Assembly (NCBI RefSeq): GCF_003991155.1
Contig: NZ_CP031293.1
DNA from: Escherichia coli
Lineage (GTDB): Bacteria > Pseudomonadota > Gammaproteobacteria > Enterobacterales > Enterobacteriaceae
DNA length: 64,000 nucleotides
Strand: one strand, 5' to 3'
Every line of letters begins with the position of its first letter. The stretch's first letter is position 1. Of the stretch, positions 3,422-60,711 are shown one piece after another. Position numbers and translations under genes: made by a program. The notes beneath the pieces were generated by a model. That model was not told the origin of the DNA. It searched no databases and worked only from the letters and a program-made list of their open reading frames with translations.

Positions 3422-3670
3422 ATGATCCACAGTAGCGTAAAGCGTTGGGGAAATTCTCCTGCAGTGCGGATCCCAGCTACGTTAATGCAGGCGCTCAATC
3501 TGAATATTGATGATGAAGTGAAGATTGGCCTGGTGGATGGCAAATTAATTATTGAGCCAGTACGTAAAGAGCCCGTATTTACGCTTGCTGAACTGGTCAG
3601 CGACATCACGCCGGAAAACCTCCACGAGAATATCGACTGGGGGGAGCCGAAAGATAAGGAAGTCTGGTAA
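3422..3670 (+). CDS. mazE: antitoxin MazE
   Basis: 82 aa; AbrB/SpoVT-like fold sequence [23 protein letters not shown]; overlaps mazF start by 1 nt. Confidence 0.95.
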
Positions 3671-4005
3671 TGGTAAGCCGATACGTACCCGATATGGGCG
3701 ATCTGATTTGGGTTGATTTTGACCCGACAAAAGGTAGCGAGCAAGCCGGACATCGTCCGGCTGTTGTCCTCAGTCCGTTCATGTACAACAACAAAACAGG
3801 TATGTGTCTGTGTGTTCCTTGTACAACGCAATCAAAAGGATATCCGTTTGAAGTTGTTCTATCCGGTCAGGAACGTGATGGCGTAGCGTTAGCTGATCAG
3901 GTAAAAAGTATCGCCTGGCGGGCAAGAGGAGCAACGAAGAAAGGAACAGTTGCCCCAGAGGAATTACAACTCATTAAAGCCAAAATTAACGTGCTGATTG
4001 GGTAG
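3670..4005 (+). CDS. mazF: endoribonuclease toxin MazF
   Basis: 111 aa PemK/MazF family; start overlaps mazE stop (TAATG). Confidence 0.95.
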   Translation: MVSRYVPDMGDLIWVDFDPTKGSEQAGHRPAVVLSPFMYNNKTGMCLCVPCTTQSKGYPFEVVLSGQERDGVALADQVKSIAWRARGATKKGTVAPEELQLIKAKINVLIG

Positions 4006-10218: not shown

Positions 10219-11112
10219 TTACCAGCGTCCGGAAGCGCCACCGCCACCAGATGAACCGCCACCACCGCGGAAATTGTCATTGTCGAATGAAGAGGATGAC
10301 GATGACGAATAGTGGGAGGAAGAATTACTTCTTGTATGGCGTGATGGCTGGTTGGTATTACGCATCGAATCCCGAACCTTTTTGCCGAAGGGAGTAAAAG
10401 CGATGGCGACAGCCAGGAACGGTGTGGCGAAGCAGAGTAATGTTGCGAGCACTCCCCAGCTTCCGCTGAAACCTGCTATAGGTAAAACAAAGGCCAGTAC
10501 AATAGCTGCGAAGCAAATCAGTCCCAGCGTTTTGATATATCCTCTGGCAGAAATAAACGTCAGTATTATCGCCCAGACTAACAAAGCCCACCAACCGCTA
10601 AAGGGCAAAGGGTGATCGGTCGGTGTTATCGTTGCTGAATTATTCCCCGTCAGGCGACTTTCAATATCGTTGATCCCCTTTTGTAAACCACCAGCCAGGT
10701 CGCCTTTTTTAAATGCCGGAATAATACTGTTGCGAATAATTTTCCCGGACTGTGCATCCGTAATAATACCTTCCAGTCCGTAACCGATTTCAATACGCAC
10801 GGTATGATCCTGCCAGGCGACTAACAGTAGAACGCCATCATCGCGGTCTTTATCACCCGGTTTCCAGCTATCGAATACCCGCGTTGCGTACTGCTCGATG
10901 GTTTCATCGCCTGTTGTATCAACCACTAACACGACCAACTGTGCGTGGTTTTTTTGCGTCAGGGCTTTAATCTGGTTGGTCAGGGTGTTTACTTCGCTGT
11001 TTGTTAATGTGCCGGTTAAGTCATTCACATACTTGGGGGATTCAGGTACTGGAATTTGTGTGGCAAACACAGATGAACAGAAGAAAGCCATAAGGAAGAT
11101 AAAATTTCGCAT
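10219..11112 (-). CDS. TPM-domain membrane protein, paralog A; start at internal ATG (MRNFIFLMAFF signal peptide)
   Basis: TPM domain ([29 protein letters not shown]...), TM segments, Ser-rich linker, C-terminal [15 protein letters not shown]; 13 bp downstream of lemA stop. Confidence 0.8.
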   Translation of the reverse strand: MRNFIFLMAFFCSSVFATQIPVPESPKYVNDLTGTLTNSEVNTLTNQIKALTQKNHAQLVVLVVDTTGDETIEQYATRVFDSWKPGDKDRDDGVLLLVAWQDHTVRIEIGYGLEGIITDAQSGKIIRNSIIPAFKKGDLAGGLQKGINDIESRLTGNNSATITPTDHPLPFSGWWALLVWAIILTFISARGYIKTLGLICFAAIVLAFVLPIAGFSGSWGVLATLLCFATPFLAVAIAFTPFGKKVRDSMRNTNQPSRHTRSNSSSHYSSSSSSSFDNDNFRGGGGSSGGGGASGRW

Positions 11113-12656: not shown

Positions 12657-13664
12657 TTATCGGTAGCGTTTTTGTAGACTGGCTGGAAGATAACGCTGTA
12701 ATGGGGATGGCGTTTCACCTTCAATCAGTTGCGAAATAAGCTCAAAGCAGTGAAAAGCAAGTTGGCGATTATCCTGTTGTATTGTGTCGATTCTTACCGA
12801 AAGTGAATCATACAAGTAATGATCATCAAAACTCGCCAGGTGGATTTTACTGTCGAGTAAATTATATTGGCTCATATAGCGCAGAACGCCTTCCAGTAAT
12901 CCACAAGCGGCAGTGAATAAGGCTTTAGGGGGACGTCCTAAACGAGCGCATAGCGCGGCAAACATTTCATAGCCTGAGCTCGGATGATAATTACCGTGAA
13001 TAATCCATTCAGGTTGTAGCGTTACTCCGGCTTGCTGCAAGCCTTGTGTAAATCCTTCCAGTCGATCGCGAGTCGGTGACAAACGGGGTTGTCCCCCCAG
13101 AAAATAGAATTCATCCGGGTGACTCCGTGCAATATCTGCCACCAGAGCGGTGGTGGGAGAAACAGAGTCAGTAATGACCAATGGCAATGTGCTGCCGTTC
13201 ATGTGGCGATCGAACAACACAACAGGTAATTGCTCGCTAAGTTTTTGATAGTCATTATCATGCAGCATACTGGATGCGACGATTAACCCATCAACCTGGC
13301 GGGCAATCATATTGTTCACCACCATTGTTTCCTGTGAAGGATTTTCATCAGTACAGGATATGAGGAGTTGGACGCCCGCTTCCCGACACAATGTTTCCAG
13401 TTCATGGGAAAATACTGCAAATCCGTAGTTAGTGATTTCAGGAACGACGAGACCAATGGTATGACTGCGGTTGTCCCGTAATGAGCGGGCATGAATGCTG
13501 GGCTGATAATGCTGCTGTTGGGCAATACTCAGCACACGCTCACGCGTTTCCTGCGCAACACGTAACTCTTTGCCACGACCATTGAGAACCAGACTGGCGG
13601 TTGCTTTCGACACTCCCGCCAGTTCAGCAATGTCTTTAATAGTAACGCGTTTGGTTTTTCTCAC
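12657..13664 (-). CDS. scrR: LacI-family sucrose operon repressor
   Basis: 335 aa; N-terminal HTH ([23 protein letters not shown]); position at end of scr operon. Confidence 0.88.
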
Positions 13665-13689
13665 GACGAGGATCCGTAATTCAAAACCC

Positions 13690-15099
13690 TCATTCTACCA
13701 TGCAGGCGCGTAGCGACCAGTAGCGTAACGTGACGTCAGACTCACCCTGTAATATCAGCGAAGCTGGATGATGGGGAAAATAACGATTACTCATTACACC
13801 TTCACCATTATTGATGAATATCTCTACGCTGGAACTGTCACAGAGAATCTTCAGTGACGTTACGCTTCCTCGCCAGTAACGAGTTAGTTTCTCTTGCCCT
13901 GCAAGGCTTCTCCTCTGTAGTTGAATACCATCGTCATTAAGATGCAGTGCCAGCGCATTGCCAAAATTCAGATACAGCTCACCCGACGGAATGATGTCCA
14001 TTTCCAGGCGTTCAATTTCGACATGCGGCGCATGATCTGCTTTTCCTTGCCAGAAGTGTTCAGCTTCACGCAGTTGCGCGAGTTCCCTGATTGGCATCTG
14101 AAACAATTTTCCCTTCTGGAATGAGAGTTCGCGAAAACAGGTCATTTGATGCTGCCAATGATGCTTTCTGGTTGGTTGCAACATCTCTTCGCCATCAGGA
14201 ACCCCCATCCAGCCGACCAGCAATCGTCGCCCGTCCGGGGCTTCCATCGTCTGTGGTGCATAGAATTCAAATCCCGCATCCAGCTCTGAGAAAGCGCCAT
14301 GCGTAAATTTGCCTGTCTCGTAATCAAACTGTCCATGTAGCCAGGCGCAGGGATAAGTATTCAGATAGCGCTCATGTTCGCGCACCATTCCCTGGGGGCA
14401 ACAGAGGAGAATGTATTCACCATCAAGGGCGAAAAAATCAGGACATTCCCACATGTATCCTGCGTTATCTATTTCATTCAGACCGTTACCAGCAATTTCT
14501 CCATGAAAAGACCAGGTATAGAGATCGACAGAGGAATACAGCAGCACTTTCCCCCGTTTCTCTTTATCTTGCGCGCCAAGCACCATGTACCATTGGCTGT
14601 TGTGCTTCCAGACTTTTGGATCACGAACATGTCCGGTGTAACCATCAGGTAACGGTATGACAGGGCCTAGTTTATCAAACCCGCCCTGGTTATTTTCGGT
14701 GGCCAGGCATTGCCATGCCGTTCTGCTGCCATCATCAAACTTAACATTACCGGTATAGCAAAGTGTGAGAACGCCCTGATTATTAACCGCGCTTCCTGAG
14801 TAACAACCATTACGGTCGTACTCTTTATCGGGCATTAGCGCTAATGGTTCATGCTGCCAGTGCAATAAATCCGTCGAACTCCAGTGCCCCCAACATTTGT
14901 ACTTATGATCACAAGCCAGTGGATTCCACTGATAAAACAGATGATAGCGGCCTCCAGACCAGCAAAAGCCATTTGGATCGTTCATTAGTCCAGTGACGGG
15001 AGCGAGATGCCAACAAGGATAGTGGGCATCTGCCAGTACTTTGGACTGACCTTTCATCACTGCCTGTAAAATCGCGGGCATTTGTGAAGGCATCGACAT
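13690..15099 (-). CDS. scrB: sucrose-6-phosphate hydrolase (GH32 invertase)
   Basis: 469 aa; GH32 motif MNDPNGF, WECPD; start overlaps scrA stop. Confidence 0.92.
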
Positions 15100-16469
15100 T
15101 ACTCCTCGTCCGTTTTGTATTTGAGTAATAAAGAGAGGCTAAAAGCGACAGCGAAAGCAATCACCATTCCAATAATATAATTAACCAACGATGTTGGCTG
15201 AACGATTGCCATGCCGGGTATTGCGGTCAGACCAACGGCAGTCATATAAACGTGAACAGAGACAACCCAGGCACCGCCGGCAGCGCCACCAATTAAGGCC
15301 GCAATAAAAGGTTTAACAAAACGAAGGTTGATACCAAAAATAGCGGCTTCAGTAATCCCTAACATTGCGGAAAAGGCCGAGGGTAGGGTGATTGCTTTAA
15401 TTTTTGTATCTTTGGTTTTAAACCATACCGCCAGACATGCACCGCCTTGCGCAACGTTTGCCATTGCCCAAATAGGCAGCAGGAAATTAACACCGATTGC
15501 AGGGTTACCTAAAAGTCCTGCTTCAATTGCGTGGAAGCTATGATGAATACCCGTAATAACAATCGCTGAATATAGTCCGCCGAATAACAACCCTGCTAAC
15601 CAGCCTGCGTGTGCAATCAGCGTGCTGAGAACGAAAGAGATACCGTCACCTAACGCTCGTCCTGCCGGACCAATAATCAAAAGAGCGATAAAGCCAGAAA
15701 TGACGACAGTCAGAAATGGCGTCAGAATGAGATCCAGAGCATCAGGGATAAACCTGCGTAACTGTTTTTCCACTATGCTCATAAACCATACTGCCAGAAG
15801 TACGGGGAAAACCGTTCCCTGATAGCCAATCATGGCGATTTCAAAACCGAAGAAGTTCATTGTCTGAAATCCCGCAGCAACGCCCCAGGCATTTGTGAGT
15901 GCCGGGTGAGTCAGAATCCCTCCTAATGTCGCGCCAAGATAAGGATTTCCACCAAATTCACGAGCAGCAGTAAAGCCAATAAGGATGGGGAGAATAATAA
16001 ATGCGGCTGAACTGCACATATCCAGCAGGATATAAATCGCATTATCGGCATTCACCCAGCCATATATTTTCACCATTCCCAGAAGCCCCATTAATAAACC
16101 AGAAGCAACAATGGCTGGAATGATGGGGACAAAAATATTAGAAAGTAGCCGTGCTATTCGCTGAAAAGGATTGAGTTTTTGAGCGGCGAGTCGAGCGGTA
16201 TCTGCTTTACTGGATTCGCTAATACCTGCAACCTGAATAAAGGCAGCATAGACTTTATTAACCACGCCGGTGCCAAAGATGATTTGCATTTGCCCTGAAT
16301 TACGAAAACAACCTTTCACTCCATCAATCTGGCCAATGGCATGTTGATCGGCAAGTGTGTCGTCAACCAGTACCAGCCGTAGGCGAGTGGCGCAATGTGC
16401 TGCACTGGTGATGTTCTCCTTACCACCTAATAAAGGAAGCAACGATTGGGCGATTTTATCGAAATCCAT
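15099..16469 (-). CDS. scrA: PTS sucrose-specific EIIBC component
   Basis: 456 aa; EIIB Cys motif (AAHCATRLRL) followed by EIIC membrane domain. Confidence 0.92.
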   Translation of the reverse strand: MDFDKIAQSLLPLLGGKENITSAAHCATRLRLVLVDDTLADQHAIGQIDGVKGCFRNSGQMQIIFGTGVVNKVYAAFIQVAGISESSKADTARLAAQKLNPFQRIARLLSNIFVPIIPAIVASGLLMGLLGMVKIYGWVNADNAIYILLDMCSSAAFIILPILIGFTAAREFGGNPYLGATLGGILTHPALTNAWGVAAGFQTMNFFGFEIAMIGYQGTVFPVLLAVWFMSIVEKQLRRFIPDALDLILTPFLTVVISGFIALLIIGPAGRALGDGISFVLSTLIAHAGWLAGLLFGGLYSAIVITGIHHSFHAIEAGLLGNPAIGVNFLLPIWAMANVAQGGACLAVWFKTKDTKIKAITLPSAFSAMLGITEAAIFGINLRFVKPFIAALIGGAAGGAWVVSVHVYMTAVGLTAIPGMAIVQPTSLVNYIIGMVIAFAVAFSLSLLLKYKTDEE

Positions 16470-16529
16470 ATAACCCTCTAATTCATTGTTATTTCAGTAA
16501 AAGCCTCACATCCGTGAGGCTGTCTGGTA

Positions 16530-18071
<1,542 letters not shown>

Positions 18072-18091
18072 TTATAAAAATTGCTAAAATG

Positions 18092-18105
18092 CTAAACCGG
18101 TTTAG
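18092..18105. promoter_or_regulatory. candidate ScrR operator (perfect palindrome CTAAACCGGTTTAG) upstream of scrY
   Basis: 14-bp perfect palindrome in scrK-scrY intergenic region. Confidence 0.6.
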
Positions 18106-18150
18106 GTGTTGATAATAAAGCTGACTTTTTAGCCAGAGCAATTATTTTCG

Positions 18151-18164
18151 CTAAACCGATTTAG
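18151..18164. promoter_or_regulatory. candidate second ScrR operator (CTAAACCGATTTAG)
   Basis: near-perfect copy of the palindrome 59 bp from the first. Confidence 0.55.
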
Positions 18165-18217
18165 TAAATGTGACAGGCACGACAAATCGGGTTACAGATA
18201 CAACAGCAGGATCACTA

Positions 18218-19135
18218 TTATGAAGGGAGATCGTGTTGTCGGGGTAAGGCGGTCATCGCGCCTTTAGCCGTGGTCGCCAGAGCACCACAAATCTGAGCTT
18301 GTGCAATGATTCGTTCAAGCTGTCTGGTATTTGTTGGTATTCCAGAATCAGCCAGACCTGCAAGTAATCCAGCGACAAAAGCATCTCCTGCCCCGGTCGT
18401 ATCGACGACAGAAACAGGTTTGGCGGGATAGTGGATAAACTGCCCCTGAAAATACACAAGTACGCCATTTTTTCCTTGTGTAATAAGCAATAAAGTCAAC
18501 GAATAACGTTGTACTAATGAATATGCGCCTTGCTGAACCTGGCTTTCGCCACTGATGAATAGCAACTCTTCTTCGGACAATTTAGCGATATTCGCCAGCG
18601 AAAGTGCGCGATCAAGGTATTTCCTTAATAGCGCTTCACTCTGCCAGAGATCGCTGCGGATATTGGGATCAAAACTGATGTTTCCGCCAGCCTGACGTAT
18701 TTTCTCCATAGCCAGAAATGCGGTACTTCGGGAAGGTTCTGCACTGAGCGCAATGGAACAAAGATGGAGCCATTCACCCGGCCCAAATGCAGGAAGGTCA
18801 CCAGGTTGTAAAAAAAGATCGGCACTTGGGCGTACCATAAAGGTAAAGTTTCTTTCTCCTTGCTCATCAAGTCCTACAGCCACAATTGAGGTGCGTTGTT
18901 GAGGATCAAGAGACATATAACGTGTATCAACATTTTCTGTACTCAGTGTCTGATACATAAAGCGACCGAAAGGATCATCGCCAACTTTGCCAATAAAGGC
19001 ACTTTTCCCCCCCAGCCTTGCGATACCGACTGCAACATTAGCAGGCGCCCCGCCAGGACACTGTAGTAGTCTCCCCTGGCTTTCGGGTAATAAATCAACA
19101 ACCGCATCACCGAGTACCCATACTCTTGCGCTCAT
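18218..19135 (-). CDS. scrK: fructokinase (PfkB family)
   Basis: 305 aa; PfkB/ribokinase motifs (DTTGAGDAF); first gene of scr cluster; RBS GGAG. Confidence 0.9.
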   Translation of the reverse strand: MSARVWVLGDAVVDLLPESQGRLLQCPGGAPANVAVGIARLGGKSAFIGKVGDDPFGRFMYQTLSTENVDTRYMSLDPQQRTSIVAVGLDEQGERNFTFMVRPSADLFLQPGDLPAFGPGEWLHLCSIALSAEPSRSTAFLAMEKIRQAGGNISFDPNIRSDLWQSEALLRKYLDRALSLANIAKLSEEELLFISGESQVQQGAYSLVQRYSLTLLLITQGKNGVLVYFQGQFIHYPAKPVSVVDTTGAGDAFVAGLLAGLADSGIPTNTRQLERIIAQAQICGALATTAKGAMTALPRQHDLPS

Positions 19136-34358: not shown

Positions 34359-35093
34359 ATGTCCAAACTCGATCTAAACGCCCTGAACGAACTGCCGAAG
34401 GTAGATCGCATTCTGGCGCTGGCGGAAACTAACGCCGAACTGGAAAAACTGGACGCTGAAGGCCGCGTTGCCTGGGCGCTGGATAATCTGCCTGGTGAAT
34501 ATGTACTTTCTTCCAGCTTTGGCATTCAGGCGGCGGTGAGCCTGCATCTGGTGAATCAGATTCGCCCGGATATTCCAGTGATCCTCACCGATACGGGTTA
34601 CTTGTTCCCGGAAACCTACCGCTTTATTGACGAGTTAACGGACAAACTCAAACTCAACCTGAAAGTGTACCGCGCTACCGAAAGCGCCGCCTGGCAGGAA
34701 GCACGTTACGGAAAACTATGGGAGCAGGGCGTTGAAGGCATTGAAAAGTACAATGACATCAACAAAGTCGAACCGATGAACCGGGCGCTGAAAGAACTAA
34801 ACGCGCAAACGTGGTTTGCTGGCCTGCGCCGTGAACAATCCGGCAGCCGCGCCAATTTACCGGTGCTGGCAATTCAGCGTGGCGTATTTAAAGTGCTGCC
34901 GATTATCGACTGGAATAACCGAACGATATATCAGTACCTGCAAAAACATGGCCTGAAATATCACCCATTATGGGACGAAGGATATTTATCGGTCGGTGAT
35001 ACCCATACAACCCGTAAATGGGAACCCGGCATGGCGGAAGAAGAAACGCGTTTCTTTGGCTTGAAAAGGGAATGTGGATTACACGAAGGGTAA
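34359..35093 (+). CDS. cysH: phosphoadenosine phosphosulfate reductase
   Basis: 244 aa from internal ATG with RBS GAGGAA; C-terminal ECGLH motif. Confidence 0.95.
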
Positions 35094-35112
35094 ATATTGC
35101 TGCTTAAATTAA

Positions 35113-35150
35113 ACGCCTCTGTCTGAAAAGATGGGGGCGTTTTTATTTTG
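35113..35150 (+). terminator. probable cysH terminator
   Basis: AACGCC...GGCGTT stem followed by TTTTTATTTT. Confidence 0.5.
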
Positions 35151-35357
35151 CGAGCAGGATTCCTGATTTTAAACGTGAACGCCGCAGGAAGAATCAACAG
35201 GCATAGAATGGCGTTGGGTGCTTGAGGCTGTCTGGCGTTAAGCATTCGCGAGGTTCCAGATGGACAAAAGCCCCAGGCGATATTTCTATCAACCTGAGGC
35301 CAGCGTTCGAACCTAAGCAATTCGGATGTTAGTCTCTTCTTTGCAGGGAGGCAAGAC

Positions 35358-35510
35358 ATGCTGACAAAATATGCCCTTGTGGCAATCATCGTACTGTGTT
35401 GTACAGTACTGGGATTCACGTTGATGGTAGGCGACTCGTTGTGTGAGTTGAGTATCAGAGAACGTGGTATGGAGTTTAAGGCAGTTCTCGCTTACGAATC
35501 GAAGAAGTAG
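35358..35510 (+). CDS. hokX: Hok/Gef-family type I toxin (small membrane peptide), 50 aa
   Basis: [50 protein letters not shown]: N-terminal TM helix, conserved LCE and AYES motifs of Hok; RBS GGGAGG; not in ORF track (below size cutoff); symbol by position next to cysH, from memory. Confidence 0.8.
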
Positions 35511-35515
35511 CCACC

Positions 35516-35580
35516 ACGCGGGGTAAAACCCCGCGTACTGAATTGTGATTGTTTGGCCTCCTGCACCCCTTTTTTATACT
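35516..35580 (+). promoter_or_regulatory. hok mRNA 3' fold-back element and terminator
   Basis: CGCGGGGTAAAACCCCGCG hairpin; GCCTCCTGC (35556-35564) near-complementary to the hok SD region GCAGGGAGGC (35343-35352); followed by T-run. Confidence 0.6.
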
Positions 35581-35635
35581 CTGTTTCTGGTGGCATTGAT
35601 TTCCTGCAGGCAAGGGAGTAATCATTTCAAACCCA

Positions 35636-36673
35636 TTAAGATGCCTTCGCCAGCTCCTTCACCAACGGTAGCATTATCCGCATAACATCACGGCAGCGAC
35701 GTTCTATTCTTCCTGGAAGTGCCTTATCAATATGCTGTTGATTATCCAGTCTTACGTCATGCCAGCTATTTCCTGCAGGGAATGCGGCTGTTTTTGCGCG
35801 TTGCTGATAACCATCCTTATTCCCAAGATTCCAGTTTGTCGCTTCCACCGAAAGTACAGCAATGCCCGCTTTGTCGAATATTTCTGCGTCATTACAACAC
35901 CCAGTGCCTTTCGGATAGTTTTTATTCAAACCTGGATTTGTGGTGGCGGCAATTCCATGACTGCGGGCAATTGCCAGCGCCCGGTCGCGCGTTAATTTCC
36001 TTACTGCTTCAGGTGTTTTTACGCCACTGTTGAAATACAGCTTATCGCCAACAATCAGATTATCGAGATTAATCACCAATAAAGTATTTTTCTTTTCGGT
36101 ATCACTCATGCGCTTGAGTAAATTCTCAGCGCCTAATTTCCCTTCTTCTTCACCACTGGTTGCCACAAAACGAATGCCATATTCGGTTGGCGTATTTTTC
36201 AGGCGTTCAGCCAGCTCCAGCATGACACCTAAACCTGCGGCGTTATCATCCATTCCTTGTAACGTCAGCCCGCCGAGATTGGCATCGGCGTCAGCATCGC
36301 TCAGCGGGGCGTAAGTATCCAGATGCGCCATAATGATGATCTGCTGCGGCGCTTTGCCTTCATGAGCGGCAATCACCGTACTTCCCGTCACGTTATGCCA
36401 GCTCTTGCGATTATCGCGGGCGGTATAAATATACCGACTATTAAATGTCCGAATATCACTGCGATAACCCATTTGCTGAAACTGTTGGCGAATATAATCG
36501 GCAGATAACATTTCTGCAGGAGTTCCGGTCATGCGTCCCGGAAAGAAAGTAGCAATATGTCGTGCCTGGGTATTAGCAAAATCGCCAGGTTTAGGTGACG
36601 AGGCGTGTACGGGGAGAATAAAGCATACGCCGAGCGCCAGGGCAGCGGTACGGTGGCGCAATGCGGAAAACAT
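35636..36673 (-). CDS. iap: alkaline phosphatase isozyme conversion aminopeptidase
   Basis: 345 aa; signal peptide, M28-family peptidase sequence. Confidence 0.9.
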   Translation of the reverse strand: MFSALRHRTAALALGVCFILPVHASSPKPGDFANTQARHIATFFPGRMTGTPAEMLSADYIRQQFQQMGYRSDIRTFNSRYIYTARDNRKSWHNVTGSTVIAAHEGKAPQQIIIMAHLDTYAPLSDADADANLGGLTLQGMDDNAAGLGVMLELAERLKNTPTEYGIRFVATSGEEEGKLGAENLLKRMSDTEKKNTLLVINLDNLIVGDKLYFNSGVKTPEAVRKLTRDRALAIARSHGIAATTNPGLNKNYPKGTGCCNDAEIFDKAGIAVLSVEATNWNLGNKDGYQQRAKTAAFPAGNSWHDVRLDNQQHIDKALPGRIERRCRDVMRIMLPLVKELAKAS

Positions 36674-42999: not shown

Positions 43000-44361
<1,362 letters not shown>

Positions 44362-44500
44362 AACGTGAGGAAATACCTGGATTTTTCCTGGTTATTTTGC
44401 CGCAGGTCAGCGTATCGTGAACATCTTTTCCAGTGTTCAGTATGGTGCCTTGCACGGTAATTATGTCACTGGTTATTAACCAATTTTTCCTGGGGGATAA

Positions 44501-45640
44501 ATGAGCGCGGGAAGCCCAAAATTCACCGTTCGCCGCATTGCGGCTTTGTCACTGGTTTCGCTATGGCTGGCAGGCTGTTCTGACACTTCAAATCCACCGG
44601 CCCCGGTCAGCTCCGTTAATGGCAATGCGCCTGCAAATACCAATTCTGGTATGTTGATTACGCCGCCGCCGAAAATGGGGACGACGTCTACAGCTCAGCA
44701 ACCGCAAATTCAGCCGGTACAGCAGCCACAAATTCAGGCCACTCAACAACCGCAAATCCAGCCGGTGCAGCCAGTAGCTCAGCAGCCGGTACAGATGGAA
44801 AACGGACGCATCGTCTATAACCGTCAGTATGGGAACATTCCGAAAGGCAGTTATAGCGGCAGTACCTATACAGTGAAAAAAGGCGACACACTTTTCTATA
44901 TCGCCTGGATTACTGGCAACGATTTCCGTGACCTTGCTCAGCGCAACAATATTCAGGCACCATACGCGCTGAACGTCGGTCAGACCTTACAGGTGGGGAA
45001 TGCTTCCGGTACGCCAATCACTGGCGGAAATGCCATTACCCAGGCCGACGCAGCAGAGCAAGGAGTTGTGATCAAGCCTGCACAAAATTCCACCGTTGCT
45101 GTTGCTTCGCAACCGACAATTACGTATTCTGAGTCTTCGGGTGAACAGAGTGCTAACAAAATGTTGCCGAACAACAAGCCAACTGCGACCACGGTCACAG
45201 CGCCTGTAACGGTACCAACAGCAAGCACAACCGAGCCGACTGTCAGCAGTACATCAACCAGTACGCCTATCTCCACCTGGCGCTGGCCGACTGAGGGCAA
45301 AGTGATCGAAACCTTTGGCGCTTCTGAGGGGGGCAACAAGGGGATTGATATCGCAGGCAGCAAAGGACAGGCAATTATCGCGACTGCAGATGGACGCGTT
45401 GTTTATGCCGGTAACGCGCTGCGCGGCTACGGTAATCTGATTATCATCAAACATAATGATGATTACCTGAGTGCCTACGCCCATAACGACACAATGCTGG
45501 TCCGGGAACAACAAGAAGTGAAGGCGGGGCAAAAAATAGCAACCATGGGTAGCACCGGAACCAGTTCAACACGCTTGCATTTTGAAATTCGTTACAAGGG
45601 GAAATCCGTAAACCCGCTGCGTTATTTGCCGCAGCGATAA
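44501..45640 (+). CDS. nlpD: murein hydrolase activator lipoprotein NlpD
   Basis: 379 aa; lipobox LAGCS, LysM domain, Q/P-rich repeats, C-terminal M23 (LytM) domain. Confidence 0.94.
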
Positions 45641-45702
45641 ATCGGCGGAACCAGGCTTTTGCTTGAATGTTCCGTCAAGGGATCACGGGTAGGAGCCACC
45701 TT

Positions 45703-46695
45703 ATGAGTCAGAATACGCTGAAAGTTCATGATTTAAATGAAGATGCGGAATTTGATGAGAACGGAGTTGAGGTTTTTGACGAAAAGGCCTTAGTAGAAGA
45801 GGAACCCAGTGATAACGATTTGGCCGAAGAGGAACTGTTATCGCAGGGAGCCACACAGCGTGTGCTGGACGCGACTCAGCTTTACCTTGGTGAGATTGGT
45901 TATTCACCACTGTTAACGGCCGAAGAAGAAGTTTATTTTGCGCGTCGCGCACTGCGTGGAGATGTTGCCTCTCGCCGCCGGATGATCGAGAGTAACTTGC
46001 GTCTGGTGGTAAAAATTGCCCGCCGTTATGGCAATCGTGGTCTGGCGTTGCTGGATCTTATCGAAGAGGGCAACCTGGGGCTGATCCGCGCGGTAGAGAA
46101 GTTTGACCCGGAACGTGGTTTCCGCTTCTCAACATACGCAACCTGGTGGATTCGCCAGACGATCGAACGGGCGATTATGAACCAAACCCGTACTATTCGT
46201 TTGCCGATTCACATCGTAAAGGAGCTGAACGTTTACCTGCGAACCGCACGTGAGTTGTCCCATAAGCTGGACCACGAACCAAGTGCGGAAGAGATCGCAG
46301 AGCAACTGGATAAGCCAGTTGATGACGTCAGCCGTATGCTTCGTCTTAACGAGCGCATTACCTCGGTAGACACCCCGCTGGGTGGTGATTCCGAAAAAGC
46401 GTTGCTGGACATCCTGGCCGATGAAAAAGAGAATGGTCCGGAAGATACCACGCAAGATGACGATATGAAGCAGAGCATCGTCAAATGGCTGTTCGAGCTG
46501 AACGCCAAACAGCGTGAAGTACTGGCACGTCGATTCGGTTTGCTGGGGTACGAAGCGGCAACACTGGAAGATGTAGGTCGTGAAATTGGCCTCACCCGTG
46601 AACGTGTTCGCCAGATTCAGGTTGAAGGCCTGCGCCGTTTGCGCGAAATCCTGCAAACGCAGGGGCTGAATATCGAAGCGCTGTTCCGCGAGTAA
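45703..46695 (+). CDS. rpoS: RNA polymerase sigma factor RpoS (sigma-38), full length
   Basis: 330 aa from [11 protein letters not shown]; RBS AGGAG; sigma-70 family regions 2-4; no premature stop. Confidence 0.96.
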
Positions 46696-46709
46696 GTAAG
46701 CATCTGTCA

Positions 46710-46746
46710 GAAAGGCCAGTCTCTTATGAGGCTGGCCTTTTTCTTT
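46710..46746 (+). terminator. rpoS intrinsic terminator
   Basis: AAAGGCCAG...CTGGCCTTT stem followed by TTTTTCTTTT. Confidence 0.8.
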
Positions 46747-46771
46747 TGTATGGGGAGTTGGTGTGTTTCGT

Positions 46772-46806
46772 CGCCTGGATAAGACACGTCAGCGTCCCAT
46801 CCGGCA
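46772..46806. repeat. REP-like element
   Basis: CGCCTGGATAAGACACGTCAGCGTCCCATCCGGCA resembles REP consensus. Confidence 0.6.
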
Positions 46807-46815
46807 ATCAACATC

Positions 46816-47223
46816 CTATTTGCTCATCATCTTGCGCACCAGCTGCATAAACAGCTCCTGCTCTTCTGCACTCAAACGCCCCAAAAATTCCTCATCCACA
46901 CTGTCACCAATCGGTATCGCCGCAGCAAGTACCTTTTCTCCTTCGGCAGTCAGCCAGACAAAGCGTCGCCGCTTATCAGCAGAGTCATGTTCTCGTCTGA
47001 CTAAGCCACGATTTTCCATTCGTGCCAACATTTCTGCCAGCGTTGCTTTGGTGCTGACGGCTGCTTCTATCAGTGCCACCTGTTCGATACCAGGTTTATC
47101 AGCAATGGCGCGCATCACCGCGTACTGTGGTTTGGTCAGATCAGGTAACTCGTGCTGCCAGCGAGCCGTGTGCTGCTGAAAAAGCTGTCGTAACTGATGG
47201 AACGCTTTATTTCGTAACGCCAT
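46816..47223 (-). CDS. MarR-family transcriptional regulator; start at internal ATG (MALRNK...)
   Basis: winged-helix MarR sequence; RBS GGAG 7 nt upstream of ATG at 47223; divergent from decarboxylase operon. Confidence 0.8.
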   Translation of the reverse strand: MALRNKAFHQLRQLFQQHTARWQHELPDLTKPQYAVMRAIADKPGIEQVALIEAAVSTKATLAEMLARMENRGLVRREHDSADKRRRFVWLTAEGEKVLAAAIPIGDSVDEEFLGRLSAEEQELFMQLVRKMMSK

Positions 47224-47369: not shown

Positions 47370-47963
47370 ATGAGACTGATCGTCGGGATGACAGGGGCCA
47401 CCGGAGCGCCTCTTGGTGTGGCATTACTGCAAGCGCTGCGGGAGATGCCGAATGTCGAGACTCATCTGGTGATGTCGAAGTGGGCGAAAACCACCATTGA
47501 ACTGGAAACGCCTTACAACGCCCGCGATGTTGCTGCCCTCGCAGACTTCTGCCATAACCCGGCGGATCAGGCCGCAACCATCTCCTCAGGTTCCTTTCGT
47601 ACCGACGGCATGATCGTTATTCCGTGCAGTATGAAAACGCTCGCCGGTATCCGTGCCGGTTACGCCGATGGCCTGGTGGGGCGCGCGGCGGACGTCGTGC
47701 TCAAAGAAGGCCGCAAACTGGTGCTGGTGCCGCGTGAAATGCCGCTTAGCACAATCCATCTCGAAAATATGCTCGCACTTTCGCGCATGGGCGTGGCGAT
47801 GGTGCCGCCGATGCCTGCCTTTTATAACCATCCCGAAACGGTAGATGACATTGTCCACCACGTGGTAGCCCGCGTGCTGGATCAATTTGGCCTCGAACAT
47901 CCTCACGCCAGGCGCTGGCAAGGATTGCCGCAGGCCCGGAATTTTTCTCAGGAGAATGAATAA
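47370..47963 (+). CDS. ecdB: UbiX-family flavin prenyltransferase (decarboxylase B subunit)
   Basis: 197 aa from MRLIVGMTGATGA; UbiX/Pad1 family; symbol by analogy with the E. coli O157 locus, from memory. Confidence 0.85.
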   Translation: MRLIVGMTGATGAPLGVALLQALREMPNVETHLVMSKWAKTTIELETPYNARDVAALADFCHNPADQAATISSGSFRTDGMIVIPCSMKTLAGIRAGYADGLVGRAADVVLKEGRKLVLVPREMPLSTIHLENMLALSRMGVAMVPPMPAFYNHPETVDDIVHHVVARVLDQFGLEHPHARRWQGLPQARNFSQENE

Positions 47964-49390
47964 TGGCATTTGATGATTTACGCAGCTTTTTACAGGCGCT
48001 CGACGACCATGGGCAATTGCTGAAAATCAGCGAAGAGGTGAACGCGGAACCGGATCTGGCAGCAGCAGCTAACGCCACCGGGCGTATCGGCGACGGCGCG
48101 CCCGCGCTGTGGTTTGATAATATTCGCGGCTTTACCGATGCCCGCGTGGCAATGAACACCATCGGTTCCTGGCAGAACCACGCGATTTCCCTCGGCCTGC
48201 CGCCAAATACCCCGGTTAAAAAACAGATTGATGAGTTTATCCGCCGCTGGGATAACTTCCCGATTGCCCCGGAGCGCCGCGCCAATCCGGCCTGGGCGCA
48301 GAACACCGTTGATGGCGACGAGATCAACCTGTTCGATATCCTGCCGCTGTTTCGTTTAAACGATGGCGATGGCGGTTTCTATCTCGACAAAGCGTGCGTG
48401 GTTTCCCGCGATCCGCTTGATCCGGATAACTTCGGCAAGCAGAACGTCGGCATCTACCGTATGGAAGTGAAGGGTAAGCGTAAGCTCGGTCTGCAACCGG
48501 TGCCGATGCACGATATCGCCCTGCATCTGCATAAAGCGGAAGAGCGCGGTGAAGATCTGCCGATTGCCATCACCCTGGGTAACGACCCGATCATCACCCT
48601 GATGGGGGCCACGCCGCTGAAATACGATCAGTCCGAGTACGAAATGGCGGGCGCGCTGCGCGAAAGTCCGTACCCGATCGCCACCGCTCCGCTGACCGGT
48701 TTTGATGTGCCGTGGGGCTCGGAGGTGATCCTCGAAGGAGTCATCGAAAGCCGCAAACGCGAGATTGAAGGGCCATTCGGTGAGTTTACCGGCCACTACT
48801 CCGGCGGGCGCAATATGACCGTCGTGCGCATTGATAAAGTCTCTTATCGCAGCAAACCCATTTTTGAATCGCTCTATCTCGGGATGCCGTGGACGGAAAT
48901 CGACTACCTGATGGGGCCAGCCACCTGTGTGCCGCTGTATCAACAACTGAAAGCTGAGTTCCCGGAAGTGCAGGCGGTAAACGCCATGTACACCCACGGC
49001 CTGCTGGCGATTATCTCCACCAAAAAACGCTACGGTGGCTTTGCCCGCGCGGTGGGCCTCCGTGCGATGACCACGCCGCACGGTCTGGGCTACGTGAAGA
49101 TGGTGATTATGGTCGATGAAGACGTTGATCCGTTCAACCTGCCGCAGGTGATGTGGGCGCTCTCTTCGAAAGTGAACCCGGCAGGGGATTTGGTGCAGTT
49201 GCCGAATATGTCCGTGCTGGAACTCGACCCTGGCTCAAGTCCGGCGGGGATCACCGACAAGCTGATTATCGACGCCACCACGCCTGTCGCCCCGGACAAC
49301 CGTGGTCACTACAGTCAGCCGGTGGTGGATTTACCGGAAACCAAAGCCTGGGCTGAAAAACTGACCGCTATGCTGGCCGCACGTCAATAA
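47963..49390 (+). CDS. ecdC: UbiD-family reversible hydroxyarylic acid decarboxylase, C subunit
   Basis: 475 aa; UbiD-family sequence; translationally coupled to upstream gene. Confidence 0.85.
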   Translation: MAFDDLRSFLQALDDHGQLLKISEEVNAEPDLAAAANATGRIGDGAPALWFDNIRGFTDARVAMNTIGSWQNHAISLGLPPNTPVKKQIDEFIRRWDNFPIAPERRANPAWAQNTVDGDEINLFDILPLFRLNDGDGGFYLDKACVVSRDPLDPDNFGKQNVGIYRMEVKGKRKLGLQPVPMHDIALHLHKAEERGEDLPIAITLGNDPIITLMGATPLKYDQSEYEMAGALRESPYPIATAPLTGFDVPWGSEVILEGVIESRKREIEGPFGEFTGHYSGGRNMTVVRIDKVSYRSKPIFESLYLGMPWTEIDYLMGPATCVPLYQQLKAEFPEVQAVNAMYTHGLLAIISTKKRYGGFARAVGLRAMTTPHGLGYVKMVIMVDEDVDPFNLPQVMWALSSKVNPAGDLVQLPNMSVLELDPGSSPAGITDKLIIDATTPVAPDNRGHYSQPVVDLPETKAWAEKLTAMLAARQ

Positions 49391-49400
49391 GGAGAACAAG

Positions 49401-49637
49401 ATGATTTGTCCACGTTGTGCCGATGAACAGATTGAAGTGATGGCGAAATCGCCGGTAAAAGATGTCTGGACGGTATATCAGTGCCAGCATTGCCTTTATA
49501 CCTGGCGCGATACCGAACCGCTGCGCCGCACCAGCCGCGAACATTATCCCGAAGCGTTCCGCATGACGCAGAAAGATATTGATGACGCGCCGATGGTGCC
49601 GAGCATCCCGCCGCTGCTGGCGGAAGGTAAGTGTTAA
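49401..49637 (+). CDS. ecdD: decarboxylase small subunit D (zinc-ribbon like)
   Basis: 78 aa; CPRC...CQHC Cys pairs; position after the UbiD-like gene. Confidence 0.75.
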   Translation: MICPRCADEQIEVMAKSPVKDVWTVYQCQHCLYTWRDTEPLRRTSREHYPEAFRMTQKDIDDAPMVPSIPPLLAEGKC

Positions 49638-49678: not shown

Positions 49679-50335
49679 TTATTTAATTTTATAAAACGAT
49701 AACCGTCTGCTTTCCGGCGAGCCGGTATCAATATAAACCTGATTGGCAAATGTCTGGATATTTATAAACATCATATGTCCAAAGATAAAACAGTCGGCAC
49801 CGTTTATTTCTTTTAACTCTCCCTTGAATGATTTCTGCACGCGATCAACAGGCCAGAGTAATTCGCTTTCTGCTATTTCTTTACCAAACTGATATTCATC
49901 ACCCGGATAATCTGCATGTGCGATGACATATTTTATGTTGTCGTTAGTGATTTCAATAATATGTGGAAGGTGATGGAATTTCAGCAACAGATCTATTGCC
50001 TCTTGTTGCTCTGAATCATTTAAATTGAAAAACCAGTCACCACCGCTGGCAAGCCACATATTTCCATCGCCAGTTTCGAATGCCTCAAGCGCCATCGCTT
50101 CGTGGTTGCCTTTAGCCGATGTAAACCAGGGCTGGTTTAGCAGGCGCAGCACGTTAAGACTCTCCGGCCCACGATCAATATTATCGCCGACAGAAATAAG
50201 TAAGTCGGTTTCAGGGCAAAAAGAGAGTTGATGTAAGCGGGATTGTAATAATTGATAGTCACCATGAATATCACCAACGGCCCATATATGGCGATAGTGA
50301 TGGGCATTGATTTTTTGATAGCGTGTAGATGGCAT
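49679..50335 (-). CDS. pphB: serine/threonine protein phosphatase 2
   Basis: 218 aa; metallophosphatase motifs GDIHG, GDNIDRG, GNHE. Confidence 0.9.
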   Translation of the reverse strand: MPSTRYQKINAHHYRHIWAVGDIHGDYQLLQSRLHQLSFCPETDLLISVGDNIDRGPESLNVLRLLNQPWFTSAKGNHEAMALEAFETGDGNMWLASGGDWFFNLNDSEQQEAIDLLLKFHHLPHIIEITNDNIKYVIAHADYPGDEYQFGKEIAESELLWPVDRVQKSFKGELKEINGADCFIFGHMMFINIQTFANQVYIDTGSPESRRLSFYKIK

Positions 50336-50440: not shown

Positions 50441-53002
50441 TTACACCAGACTCTTCAAGCGATAAATCCACTCCAGCGCCTGACGCGGAGTCAGTGAATC
50501 CGGGTCGAGGTTTTCCAGTGCCTCGACCGCAGGCGAAGTTTCTTCCGGTAGGGACAGCAAAGACATTTGTGTACCATCCACTTGCGTAGCAGCGGCGTTC
50601 GGCGAAATGCTTTCCAGCTCACGCAGTTTTTGCCGTGCGCGCTTAATAACCTCTTTTGGCACGCCCGCCAGAGCAGCAACCGCCAGGCCGTAGCTTTTGC
50701 TCGCCGCGCCATCCTGCACGCTGTGCATAAAGGCAATGGTGTCGCCGTGCTCCAGCGCATCGAGATGCACGTTGGCGACGCCTTCCATTTTCTCCGGCAG
50801 TTGGGTCAGCTCGAAATAGTGGGTAGCAAACAGCGTCAACGCTTTGATCTTATTTGCCAGATTTTCCGCGCATGCCCACGCCAGCGACAGACCATCGTAA
50901 GTGGAAGTTCCGCGCCCAATCTCATCCATCAGCACCAGACTGTACTCGGTGGCGTTATGTAAAATATTGGCGGTTTCGGTCATCTCCACCATAAAGGTTG
51001 AACGCCCGGATGCCAGATCGTCTGCCGCGCCTACGCGGGTAAAGATACGGTCGATCGGGCCAATCTCGACTTTTTGCGCCGGTACGTAGCTGCCGATATA
51101 CGCCATCAGCGCAATCAACGCGGTCTGGCGCATATAGGTACTTTTACCGCCCATGTTCGGACCGGTAATGATCAACATGCGGCGCTGCGGCGACAGGTTC
51201 AGCGGGTTAGCGATAAACGGCTCATTCAGTACTTGTTCAACTACCGGATGGCGACCTTCGGTAATGCGAATACCCGGTTTATCAATAAAGGTCGGGCAGG
51301 TGTAGTTCAGGGTATAGGCCCGTTCCGCCAGGTTCACCAGCACGTCGAGTTCCGCCAGCGCGCTCGCGCTCTGTTGCAACGCTTCCAGATGCGGCAACAG
51401 CAGGTCGAACAGCTCTTCATAAAGTTGTTTTTCCAGAGCCAGTGCTTTGCCTTTTGAGGTGAGAACTTTATCTTCGTACTCTTTCAGCTCCGGAATAATG
51501 TAACGCTCGGCGTTTTTCAGCGTCTGGCGGCGCATGTAGTTAATCGGTGCCAGATGGCTTTGCCCACGGCTGATCTGAATGTAGTAGCCGTGCACTGCAT
51601 TAAAGCCAACTTTCAGCGTGTCCAGGCCGGTACGTTCACGCTCGCGGACCTCCAGACGCTCCAGATAATCGGTCGCACCGTCAGCCAGCGCGCGCCACTC
51701 ATCCAGCTCTTCGTTATAGCCCGATGCGATAACACCACCGTCGCGTACCAGCACCGGTGGTGTGTCGATGATTGCTCGCTCCAGCAGATCGCGCAGCTCG
51801 GCAAACTCGCCCATCTTCTCACGCAGCGCTTGTACCGGTGCACTATCGACATTTTCTAACTGCGCACGCAACTCCGGCAGTTGCTGGAAAGCGTGGCGCA
51901 TACGGGCCAGATCGCGCGGGCGAGCAGTACGTAACGCCAGACGCGCCAGAATACGTTCCAGGTCGCCCACCTGACGCAGCACAGGCTGTATCTCGGCGGT
52001 GAAATCCTGCAATGCGCCAATAGTTTGCTGGCGCTCAAGCAACACGCGGGTATCGCGCACTGGCATATGCAGCCAGCGTTTCAGCATACGACTACCCATC
52101 GGCGTTACAGTGCAGTCGAGCACTGAAGCCAGCGTGTTTTCCGCACCGCCCGCCAGGTTCTGAGTAATTTCCAGGTTACGACGCGTCGCGGCATCCATAA
52201 TGATGCTGTCCTGCTCACGTTCCATGGTGATAGAACGAATATGCGGCAGGGTCGTGCGTTGGGTATCTTTCGCATACTGCAACAGACAACCGGCAGCACA
52301 AAGTCCGCGCGGCGCGTTCTCGACGCCAAAACCGACCAGATCGCGGGTGCCAAATTGCAGATTCAACTGCTGGCGCGCAGTGTCGATTTCAAACTCCCAC
52401 AGCGGACGACGACGCAGGCCGCGACGACCTTCAATCAGCGACATCTCGGCGAAATCTTCTGCATACAACAGCTCTGCCGGGTTGGTACGTTGCAGCTCTG
52501 CAGCCATCGTTTCGCGGTCCGCCGGTTCGCTAAGGCGAAAACGCCCGGAGCTGATATCCAACGTCGCGTAGCCGAACCCTTTGCTGTCCTGCCAGATAGC
52601 TGCCAGCAGGTTATCCTGACGCTCCTGCAACAGCGCTTCATCGCTGATGGTGCCCGGCGTAACGATACGGACAACTTTGCGCTCGACCGGCCCTTTGCTG
52701 GTCGCCGGATCGCCAATTTGTTCGCAGATGGCAACGGACTCGCCCTGATTCACCAGTTTGGCGAGATAGTTTTCCACCGCATGGTAGGGGATCCCCGCCA
52801 TCGGGATCGGCTCTCCCGCGGAAGCACCGCGTTTGGTCAGTGAAATATCCAGCAGCTGCGAGGCGCGTTTCGCGTCGTCATAAAACAGTTCGTAAAAGTC
52901 ACCCATCCGATAGAACAGCAGGATCTCGGGATGCTGGGCTTTCAGCTTGAGATACTGCTGCATCATTGGCGTATGGGCATCAAAATTTTCTATTGCACTC
53001 AT
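50441..53002 (-). CDS. mutS: DNA mismatch repair protein MutS
   Basis: 853 aa; Walker [10 protein letters not shown]; canonical MutS sequence. Confidence 0.97.
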
Positions 53003-60587: not shown

Positions 60588-60711
60588 GCTGAGGCTTTGC
60601 CCGTTTTGCAGGCGTTACGCCTGTTTGGGGATGGGCGTGTCGATGAGTGTCGAAAATGACATTTCATCGGCATGTTTTCGTCAAAAATGACAATCACCTG
60701 AGGAATGACTG

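Follow-up and report, generated by a model that had tools for sequence, protein, structure and literature searches.

Does the rpoS gene of this Escherichia coli strain still encode a working sigma-S, and what can an intact copy tell us about the general stress response of its host? We addressed this question in a window comprising the whole stretch of DNA analysed (64,000 nucleotides), in which rpoS lies directly downstream of nlpD. Positions 45703-46695 almost certainly hold the full-length wild-type rpoS of a natural (non-K-12) E. coli, encoding a functional sigma-S, and no feature of the sequence speaks against this. The doubt that is left concerns RpoS output at the level of the strain and not the rpoS gene itself.

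The rpoS gene and its product

The coding sequence and two short elements are located as follows:

45691..45695, + strand: Shine-Dalgarno motif AGGAG, read from the sequence, 7 nt before ATG 45703
45703..46695, + strand: rpoS CDS, encoding sigma-S, identified by translation, NCBIfam models, solved RpoS chains and DNA identity to annotated rpoS
45799..45801, + strand: rpoS codon 33, GAG (Glu), the allele usual in natural isolates, from codon comparison (CAG, Gln, in MG1655)

Translation of 45703-46695 yields 330 sense codons without interruption on this strand, followed by one TAA, and a product of 330 aa that ends in NIEALFRE; the opposite strand, read in the same register across 45703-46695, contains several stops. 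The sequence-only reading had proposed a full-length gene of 330 codons with no premature stop, and both its coordinates and its count proved exact by translation, by NCBIfam and by alignment with MG1655.

The identity of the product is supported by several comparisons. Two NCBIfam equivalog models of RpoS recognize it above their cutoffs, NF004207 with 604.6 bits (cutoff 394) and TIGR02394 with 480.7 bits (cutoff 378.7), and in the NCBIfam profile search the models for RpoD, RpoH and other sigma factors all scored under their own cutoffs. Pfam detects Sigma70_r1_2 at residues 56-88, r2 at 94-163, r3 at 174-248 and r4 at 262-315 of the 330-aa protein; regions 1.2, 2, 3 and 4 thus appear in order and without the long region 1.1 and non-conserved insert of RpoD, which is the architecture of a group-2 sigma-70 factor. 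All 330 residues match those of the solved E. coli RpoS chain 6kj6_F except residue 33 (Q in 6kj6_F, E here), while a second solved chain, 5ipl_F, also carries E33 and departs from our protein solely at residues 2 and 329, both engineered in that construct. The gene order pcm-nlpD-rpoS is present, and the position of rpoS directly downstream of nlpD corresponds to the conserved enterobacterial synteny.

We then compared the gene codon by codon with rpoS of E. coli K-12 MG1655 (b2741, NP_417221.1). Both genes measure 993 nt including the stop and align without indels, with identity at 985 of 993 nt and at 329 of 330 aa. Among the eight nucleotide differences, seven are synonymous (codons 55, 88, 118, 154, 191, 244 and 273) and one changes an amino acid, Q33E. 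Codon 33 is a known polymorphic position: it is TAG (amber) in some K-12 strains and specifies Glu, Tyr or Gln in others, in agreement with the sequence-only reading, which had mentioned an amber codon near position 33 in some laboratory lineages, whereas GAG is common in natural non-K-12 isolates and was found in all VTEC strains studied (Dong et al., 2009, PMC2700278). A K-12 rpoS bearing Gln33Glu was unaffected in HPII catalase, glycogen and survival of H2O2 and cold (Iwase et al., 2017, PMC5405132). By analogy, the published activity of this K-12 variant supports sigma-S activity in the present strain.

Two other readings of the gene have to be weighed against that of an intact 330-codon rpoS. 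The program-made ORF list opens the frame 12 codons earlier, at ATG 45667, which would lengthen the protein by 12 residues at its N-terminus, to 342 aa. We consider this very improbable and rejected it: no Shine-Dalgarno motif precedes ATG 45667, the AGGAG standing instead before 45703; residues 1-329 of the 330-aa form align to positions 1-329 of the 329 positions of the curated RpoS model; and the upstream start is unused in annotations, the solved-structure constructs and RefSeq both taking the 330-aa form, with RefSeq placing the start of identical DNA at ATG 45703. Because the AGGAG motif, the alignment of the RpoS model from residue 1 and the RefSeq start coincide, 45703 is a credible start for rpoS. 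The second reading, that a frame-preserving missense change inactivates or attenuates the allele, draws on known alleles of this kind: a clinical isolate, for example, lost RpoS function through Ile128Asn (Iwase et al., 2017, PMC5405132). Its probability here is close to nil. Ile128 is retained, and the alignment with reference RpoS that the sequence-only reading had put forward as a check for inactivating substitutions returned none: the sole amino-acid difference from the functional MG1655 protein is Q33E, which was experimentally functional in the same study. The alignments to MG1655 and to the solved chains effectively refute hidden missense inactivation. Lys173, in the segment through which the RssB adaptor recognises the protein (PMC10372455), is also kept.

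An intact rpoS among natural isolates

The same allele is widespread. In a survey set of 5426 complete E. coli genomes, 5414 had an rpoS match, and the matching gene was at least 99% identical to ours in 4990 of these 5414. At least 30 complete genomes carry an annotated rpoS that matches our 993 nt at 100% DNA identity; among the matches listed, these identical genes come from human, cattle, chicken, dog and pig sources and from wastewater. The 61-mer centred on codon 33 with GAG occurs exactly in 4821 of the 5414 genomes with a match; on these counts, Glu33 is the majority state of the species, and the Gln33 of MG1655 the deviant one. Gross disruption of rpoS, a count that leaves out point nonsense and frameshift alleles, affects 12 of the 5426 genomes, which have no match, and 14 more that lack an 80% contiguous match.

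These figures bear on how much weight an intact gene can carry. The sequence-only reading started from the premise that null or attenuated rpoS alleles are common. This holds mainly for laboratory-stored collections and not for natural isolates: when such isolates are carefully handled, only 2% are without functional RpoS, and the mutations are laboratory-arisen (Snyder et al., 2012, PMC3484664). An intact rpoS is therefore the default expectation in natural isolates and does not distinguish this strain from others. The further suggestion that an intact allele points to a functional general stress response stands as far as support goes; the gene neither proves nor quantifies such a response. 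RpoS-positive strains can differ by as much as 7-fold in their amount of RpoS protein, and the range in the ECOR collection reaches up to 7-fold above MG1655 (PMC3074542). Because levels vary several-fold among strains that all possess RpoS, the intact gene does not fix the RpoS level or the stress phenotype.

What we describe here is a textbook gene, already known, in the form that natural isolates most often carry. The strain has escaped the loss of rpoS that is often selected by laboratory passage or nutrient limitation, and the intact gene can serve as a marker of the quality or "wildness" of the isolate and as a baseline for the tolerance of acid, oxidative stress and starvation to be expected of it. 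Beyond annotation it matters little, and it raises no new question.

Promoter, leader and sigma-S output

The elements upstream of the coding sequence, together with a gene of the window that relates to RpoS accumulation, are the following:

44501..45640, + strand: nlpD (murein hydrolase activator lipoprotein), a 379-aa ORF annotated as nlpD in identical genomes and host of the rpoS promoter and leader
45102..45130, + strand: presumed main rpoS promoter PrpoS, with -35 TTGCTT at 45102-45107, a 17-bp spacer and -10 TATTCT at 45125-45130, placed from published distance, K-12 identity and spacing
45136..45702, + strand: rpoS 5' untranslated leader, 567 nt, mostly within the nlpD CDS, its length taken from PMC10948607
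45585..45606, + strand: upstream strand of the predicted translation-inhibitory hairpin and pairing "hub" for the activating small RNAs DsrA, RprA and ArcZ, from the predicted fold and the mechanism in PMC10372455 and PMC10948607
1110-3344: relA, an intact 744-codon ORF

The main rpoS promoter of K-12 is located inside nlpD (PMC10948607, PMC10372455), and its start site lies 567 nt upstream of the ATG (PMC10948607), a distance that places +1 at about 45136 here. The sequence-only reading had expected the promoter and a long leader inside the upstream nlpD gene, and both the comparison with K-12 and this start distance agree with it. NlpD itself shows 0 amino-acid differences from its K-12 counterpart. 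The hexamers TTGCTT and TATTCT are presumed to be those of PrpoS on the basis of the K-12 promoter and of their spacing. A scan of 44300-46900 for the sigma-70 consensus missed PrpoS, the hexamers matching too few consensus positions; its sole match, at 46406-46434 inside rpoS, is at chance level (one found, 2.1 expected). Because the consensus scan is too strict for a weak promoter, we placed PrpoS by the 567-nt distance and by identity with K-12.

Within PrpoS, a single base departs from K-12: G>T at 45106, which turns the -35 element from TTGCGT into TTGCTT and is synonymous in nlpD (Ala202, GCG to GCT). The 61-mer with T at 45106 is found exactly in 325 of about 5418 complete genomes (~6%), and the K-12 form in 3434 (~63%). 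This change probably does no more than mark a lineage, with little effect. An altered basal level of rpoS transcription in the lineage as its consequence seems to us very improbable; if true, it would represent a cis-acting, heritable shift of the balance between stress and growth that is invisible to ORF-based screening.

The leader differs from that of K-12 at five positions (-318, -309, -294, -183 and -162), all of them synonymous third positions of nlpD codons, and the form around -183/-162 is the majority one, occurring exactly in 4285 genomes. From -161 to +95 of rpoS there is no difference at all, and the K-12 elements mapped in this interval are preserved because the sequence is identical there. 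The presumed Hfq sites, the A-rich (AAN)4 element at 45507-45518 and the A6 run at 45531-45536, are likewise unchanged relative to K-12. The fold predicted for -150 to +30 has a free energy of -54.3 kcal/mol; relative to shuffled sequences, its z-score is -2.2. It pairs -15 to +5 with -97 to -118, and the AUG with -111 to -113; the pairing probability of the AUG reaches 0.96-1.0, and the AGGAG motif falls in an internal loop. The upstream strand of the hairpin is predicted to form a duplex of -31.8 kcal/mol with an assumed sequence of the 5' region of DsrA. No Rfam family reached its gathering threshold in the rpoS/nlpD region.

In K-12, small-RNA activation of rpoS occurs by an anti-antisense mechanism (PMC10372455, PMC10948607), and the predicted DsrA duplex fits this published activation. 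By analogy with K-12, the leader would combine an inhibitory hairpin with a small-RNA pairing site, and the cis-regulatory layout around rpoS is conserved. If regulation in this strain follows the K-12 scheme, rpoS would be transcribed mainly from the promoter inside nlpD, giving the 567-nt leader, whose fold would pair the start-codon region with about -97 to -118 and hold translation down. The small RNAs DsrA, RprA and ArcZ, which depend on Hfq, would pair with the upstream strand during stress and so make the ribosome-binding region accessible. Proteolysis by RssB/ClpXP would then control the stability of sigma-S, which would steer RNA polymerase to general-stress promoters. Each of these steps, from the transcription start through hairpin repression, small-RNA relief and RssB/ClpXP control to activation of the regulon, would be carried over from K-12.

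Could rpoS be intact and sigma-S output nevertheless be materially unlike that of K-12? Such a difference might arise in cis, through the -35 change at 45106 and the leader SNPs, or in trans, through variation in rssB, spoT/ppGpp, Hfq or the small RNAs, and a normal general stress response could then no longer be read from an "intact" rpoS. The -35 variant is indeed a minority allele by its exact 61-mers, and the levels found among RpoS-positive ECOR strains, up to 7-fold above MG1655, give this idea some substance. We nonetheless consider it unlikely. Neither G nor T fits the sigma-70 consensus TTGACA at 45106, so that little change is predicted, and the substitution, silent in nlpD, has the look of a lineage marker; at -183 and -162 the leader bears the bases of the species majority, and the region of the hairpin and small-RNA pairing is the same as in K-12. 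On the trans side, ppGpp promotes RpoS accumulation, which makes relA relevant to rpoS, and relA is also intact in the window; rssB, hfq, dsrA, rprA, arcZ, spoT, crl and iraP/M/D are located outside the 64 kb. An intact rpoS under a K-12-like regulatory region therefore remains our preferred reading of the locus.

The surroundings of rpoS and comparison with known systems

Downstream of rpoS and elsewhere in the window, we located the following features:

46709..46751, + strand: rpoS intrinsic terminator, with a 15-pair stem, a 4-nt loop and a T-rich tail, from a terminator scan
46816-47223, - strand: MarR/SlyA-like regulator, from ORFs and the annotation of matching genomes
47370-49637: genes for subunits B, C and D of a hydroxyarylic-acid decarboxylase, from ORFs and the annotation of matching genomes
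49679-50335: pphB, from ORFs and the annotation of matching genomes
50441-53002, - strand: mutS, from ORFs and the annotation of matching genomes
35358-35510: Hok/Gef family CDS within the cysH-iap gap
3422-4005: mazE/mazF toxin-antitoxin pair

Several loci away from rpoS deserve mention in their own right. The gap between cysH and iap spans only about 540 bp (35093-35636) and contains a hok/sok-type toxin-antitoxin locus, with an Rfam sok match at 35216-35373 (110 bits) that is the only Rfam match in the window. In K-12, the cysH-iap interval is occupied by the type I-E CRISPR-Cas locus. No type I-E CRISPR repeat was found in the whole window at up to 3 mismatches, and the strain seems to be without type I-E CRISPR-Cas at the usual site.

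Coordinates in the first part of the window (1-31999) assume collinearity with strain 2016C-3878, which was verified at relA only, where the ORF lies exactly at the predicted position. Under this assumption, and following the annotation of a matching genome, a sucrose-utilisation cluster extends over ~12657-19135, in the interval between queE and ygcE, and comprises genes for a kinase, a carbohydrate porin, a sucrose PTS IIBC component, a sucrose-6-phosphate hydrolase and a LacI-family regulator; K-12 presumably has no such cluster between queE and ygcE. The annotation of the matching genome also places, with the same reliance on collinearity, a truncated TPM-domain pseudogene ("missing C-terminus") at ~10441-11112, adjoining a LemA-family gene and two intact TPM-domain genes.

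Immediately downstream of rpoS, the terminator has the same stem arms as in K-12 and differs in its loop, which is AAGC in K-12 and TTAT here. Similarity to K-12 stops just after the T-run of the terminator, and the sequences are unrelated beyond ~46746. Where K-12 carries the ygbN-ygbI genes downstream of rpoS, this strain has none of them and instead a MarR-family gene, the decarboxylase genes and pphB. The segment 46696-50440 is the known polymorphic mutS-rpoS region in its o454/ygbN-negative, O157:H7/EHEC-1-like form, "pattern I" as defined by Ewers et al. (2014, PMC4209514).

The 12-kb neighbourhood of rpoS is 100% identical to that of several complete genomes, and from 32000 to 64000 the window differs from strain 2016C-3878 by one base, at 60599; this sole difference falls in the region of the hyc formate hydrogenlyase genes. 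The RpoS entry WP_000081550.1 of RefSeq (E. coli O7:K1 CE10, strain 2016C-3878) corresponds to rpoS DNA that is 100% identical and sits in the same genomic context, with no rpoS difference detectable. The rpoS(Am33) laboratory alleles of K-12 represent the same gene and the same polymorphic codon, TAG in those alleles (PMC2700278) and a sense GAG in the strain studied here.
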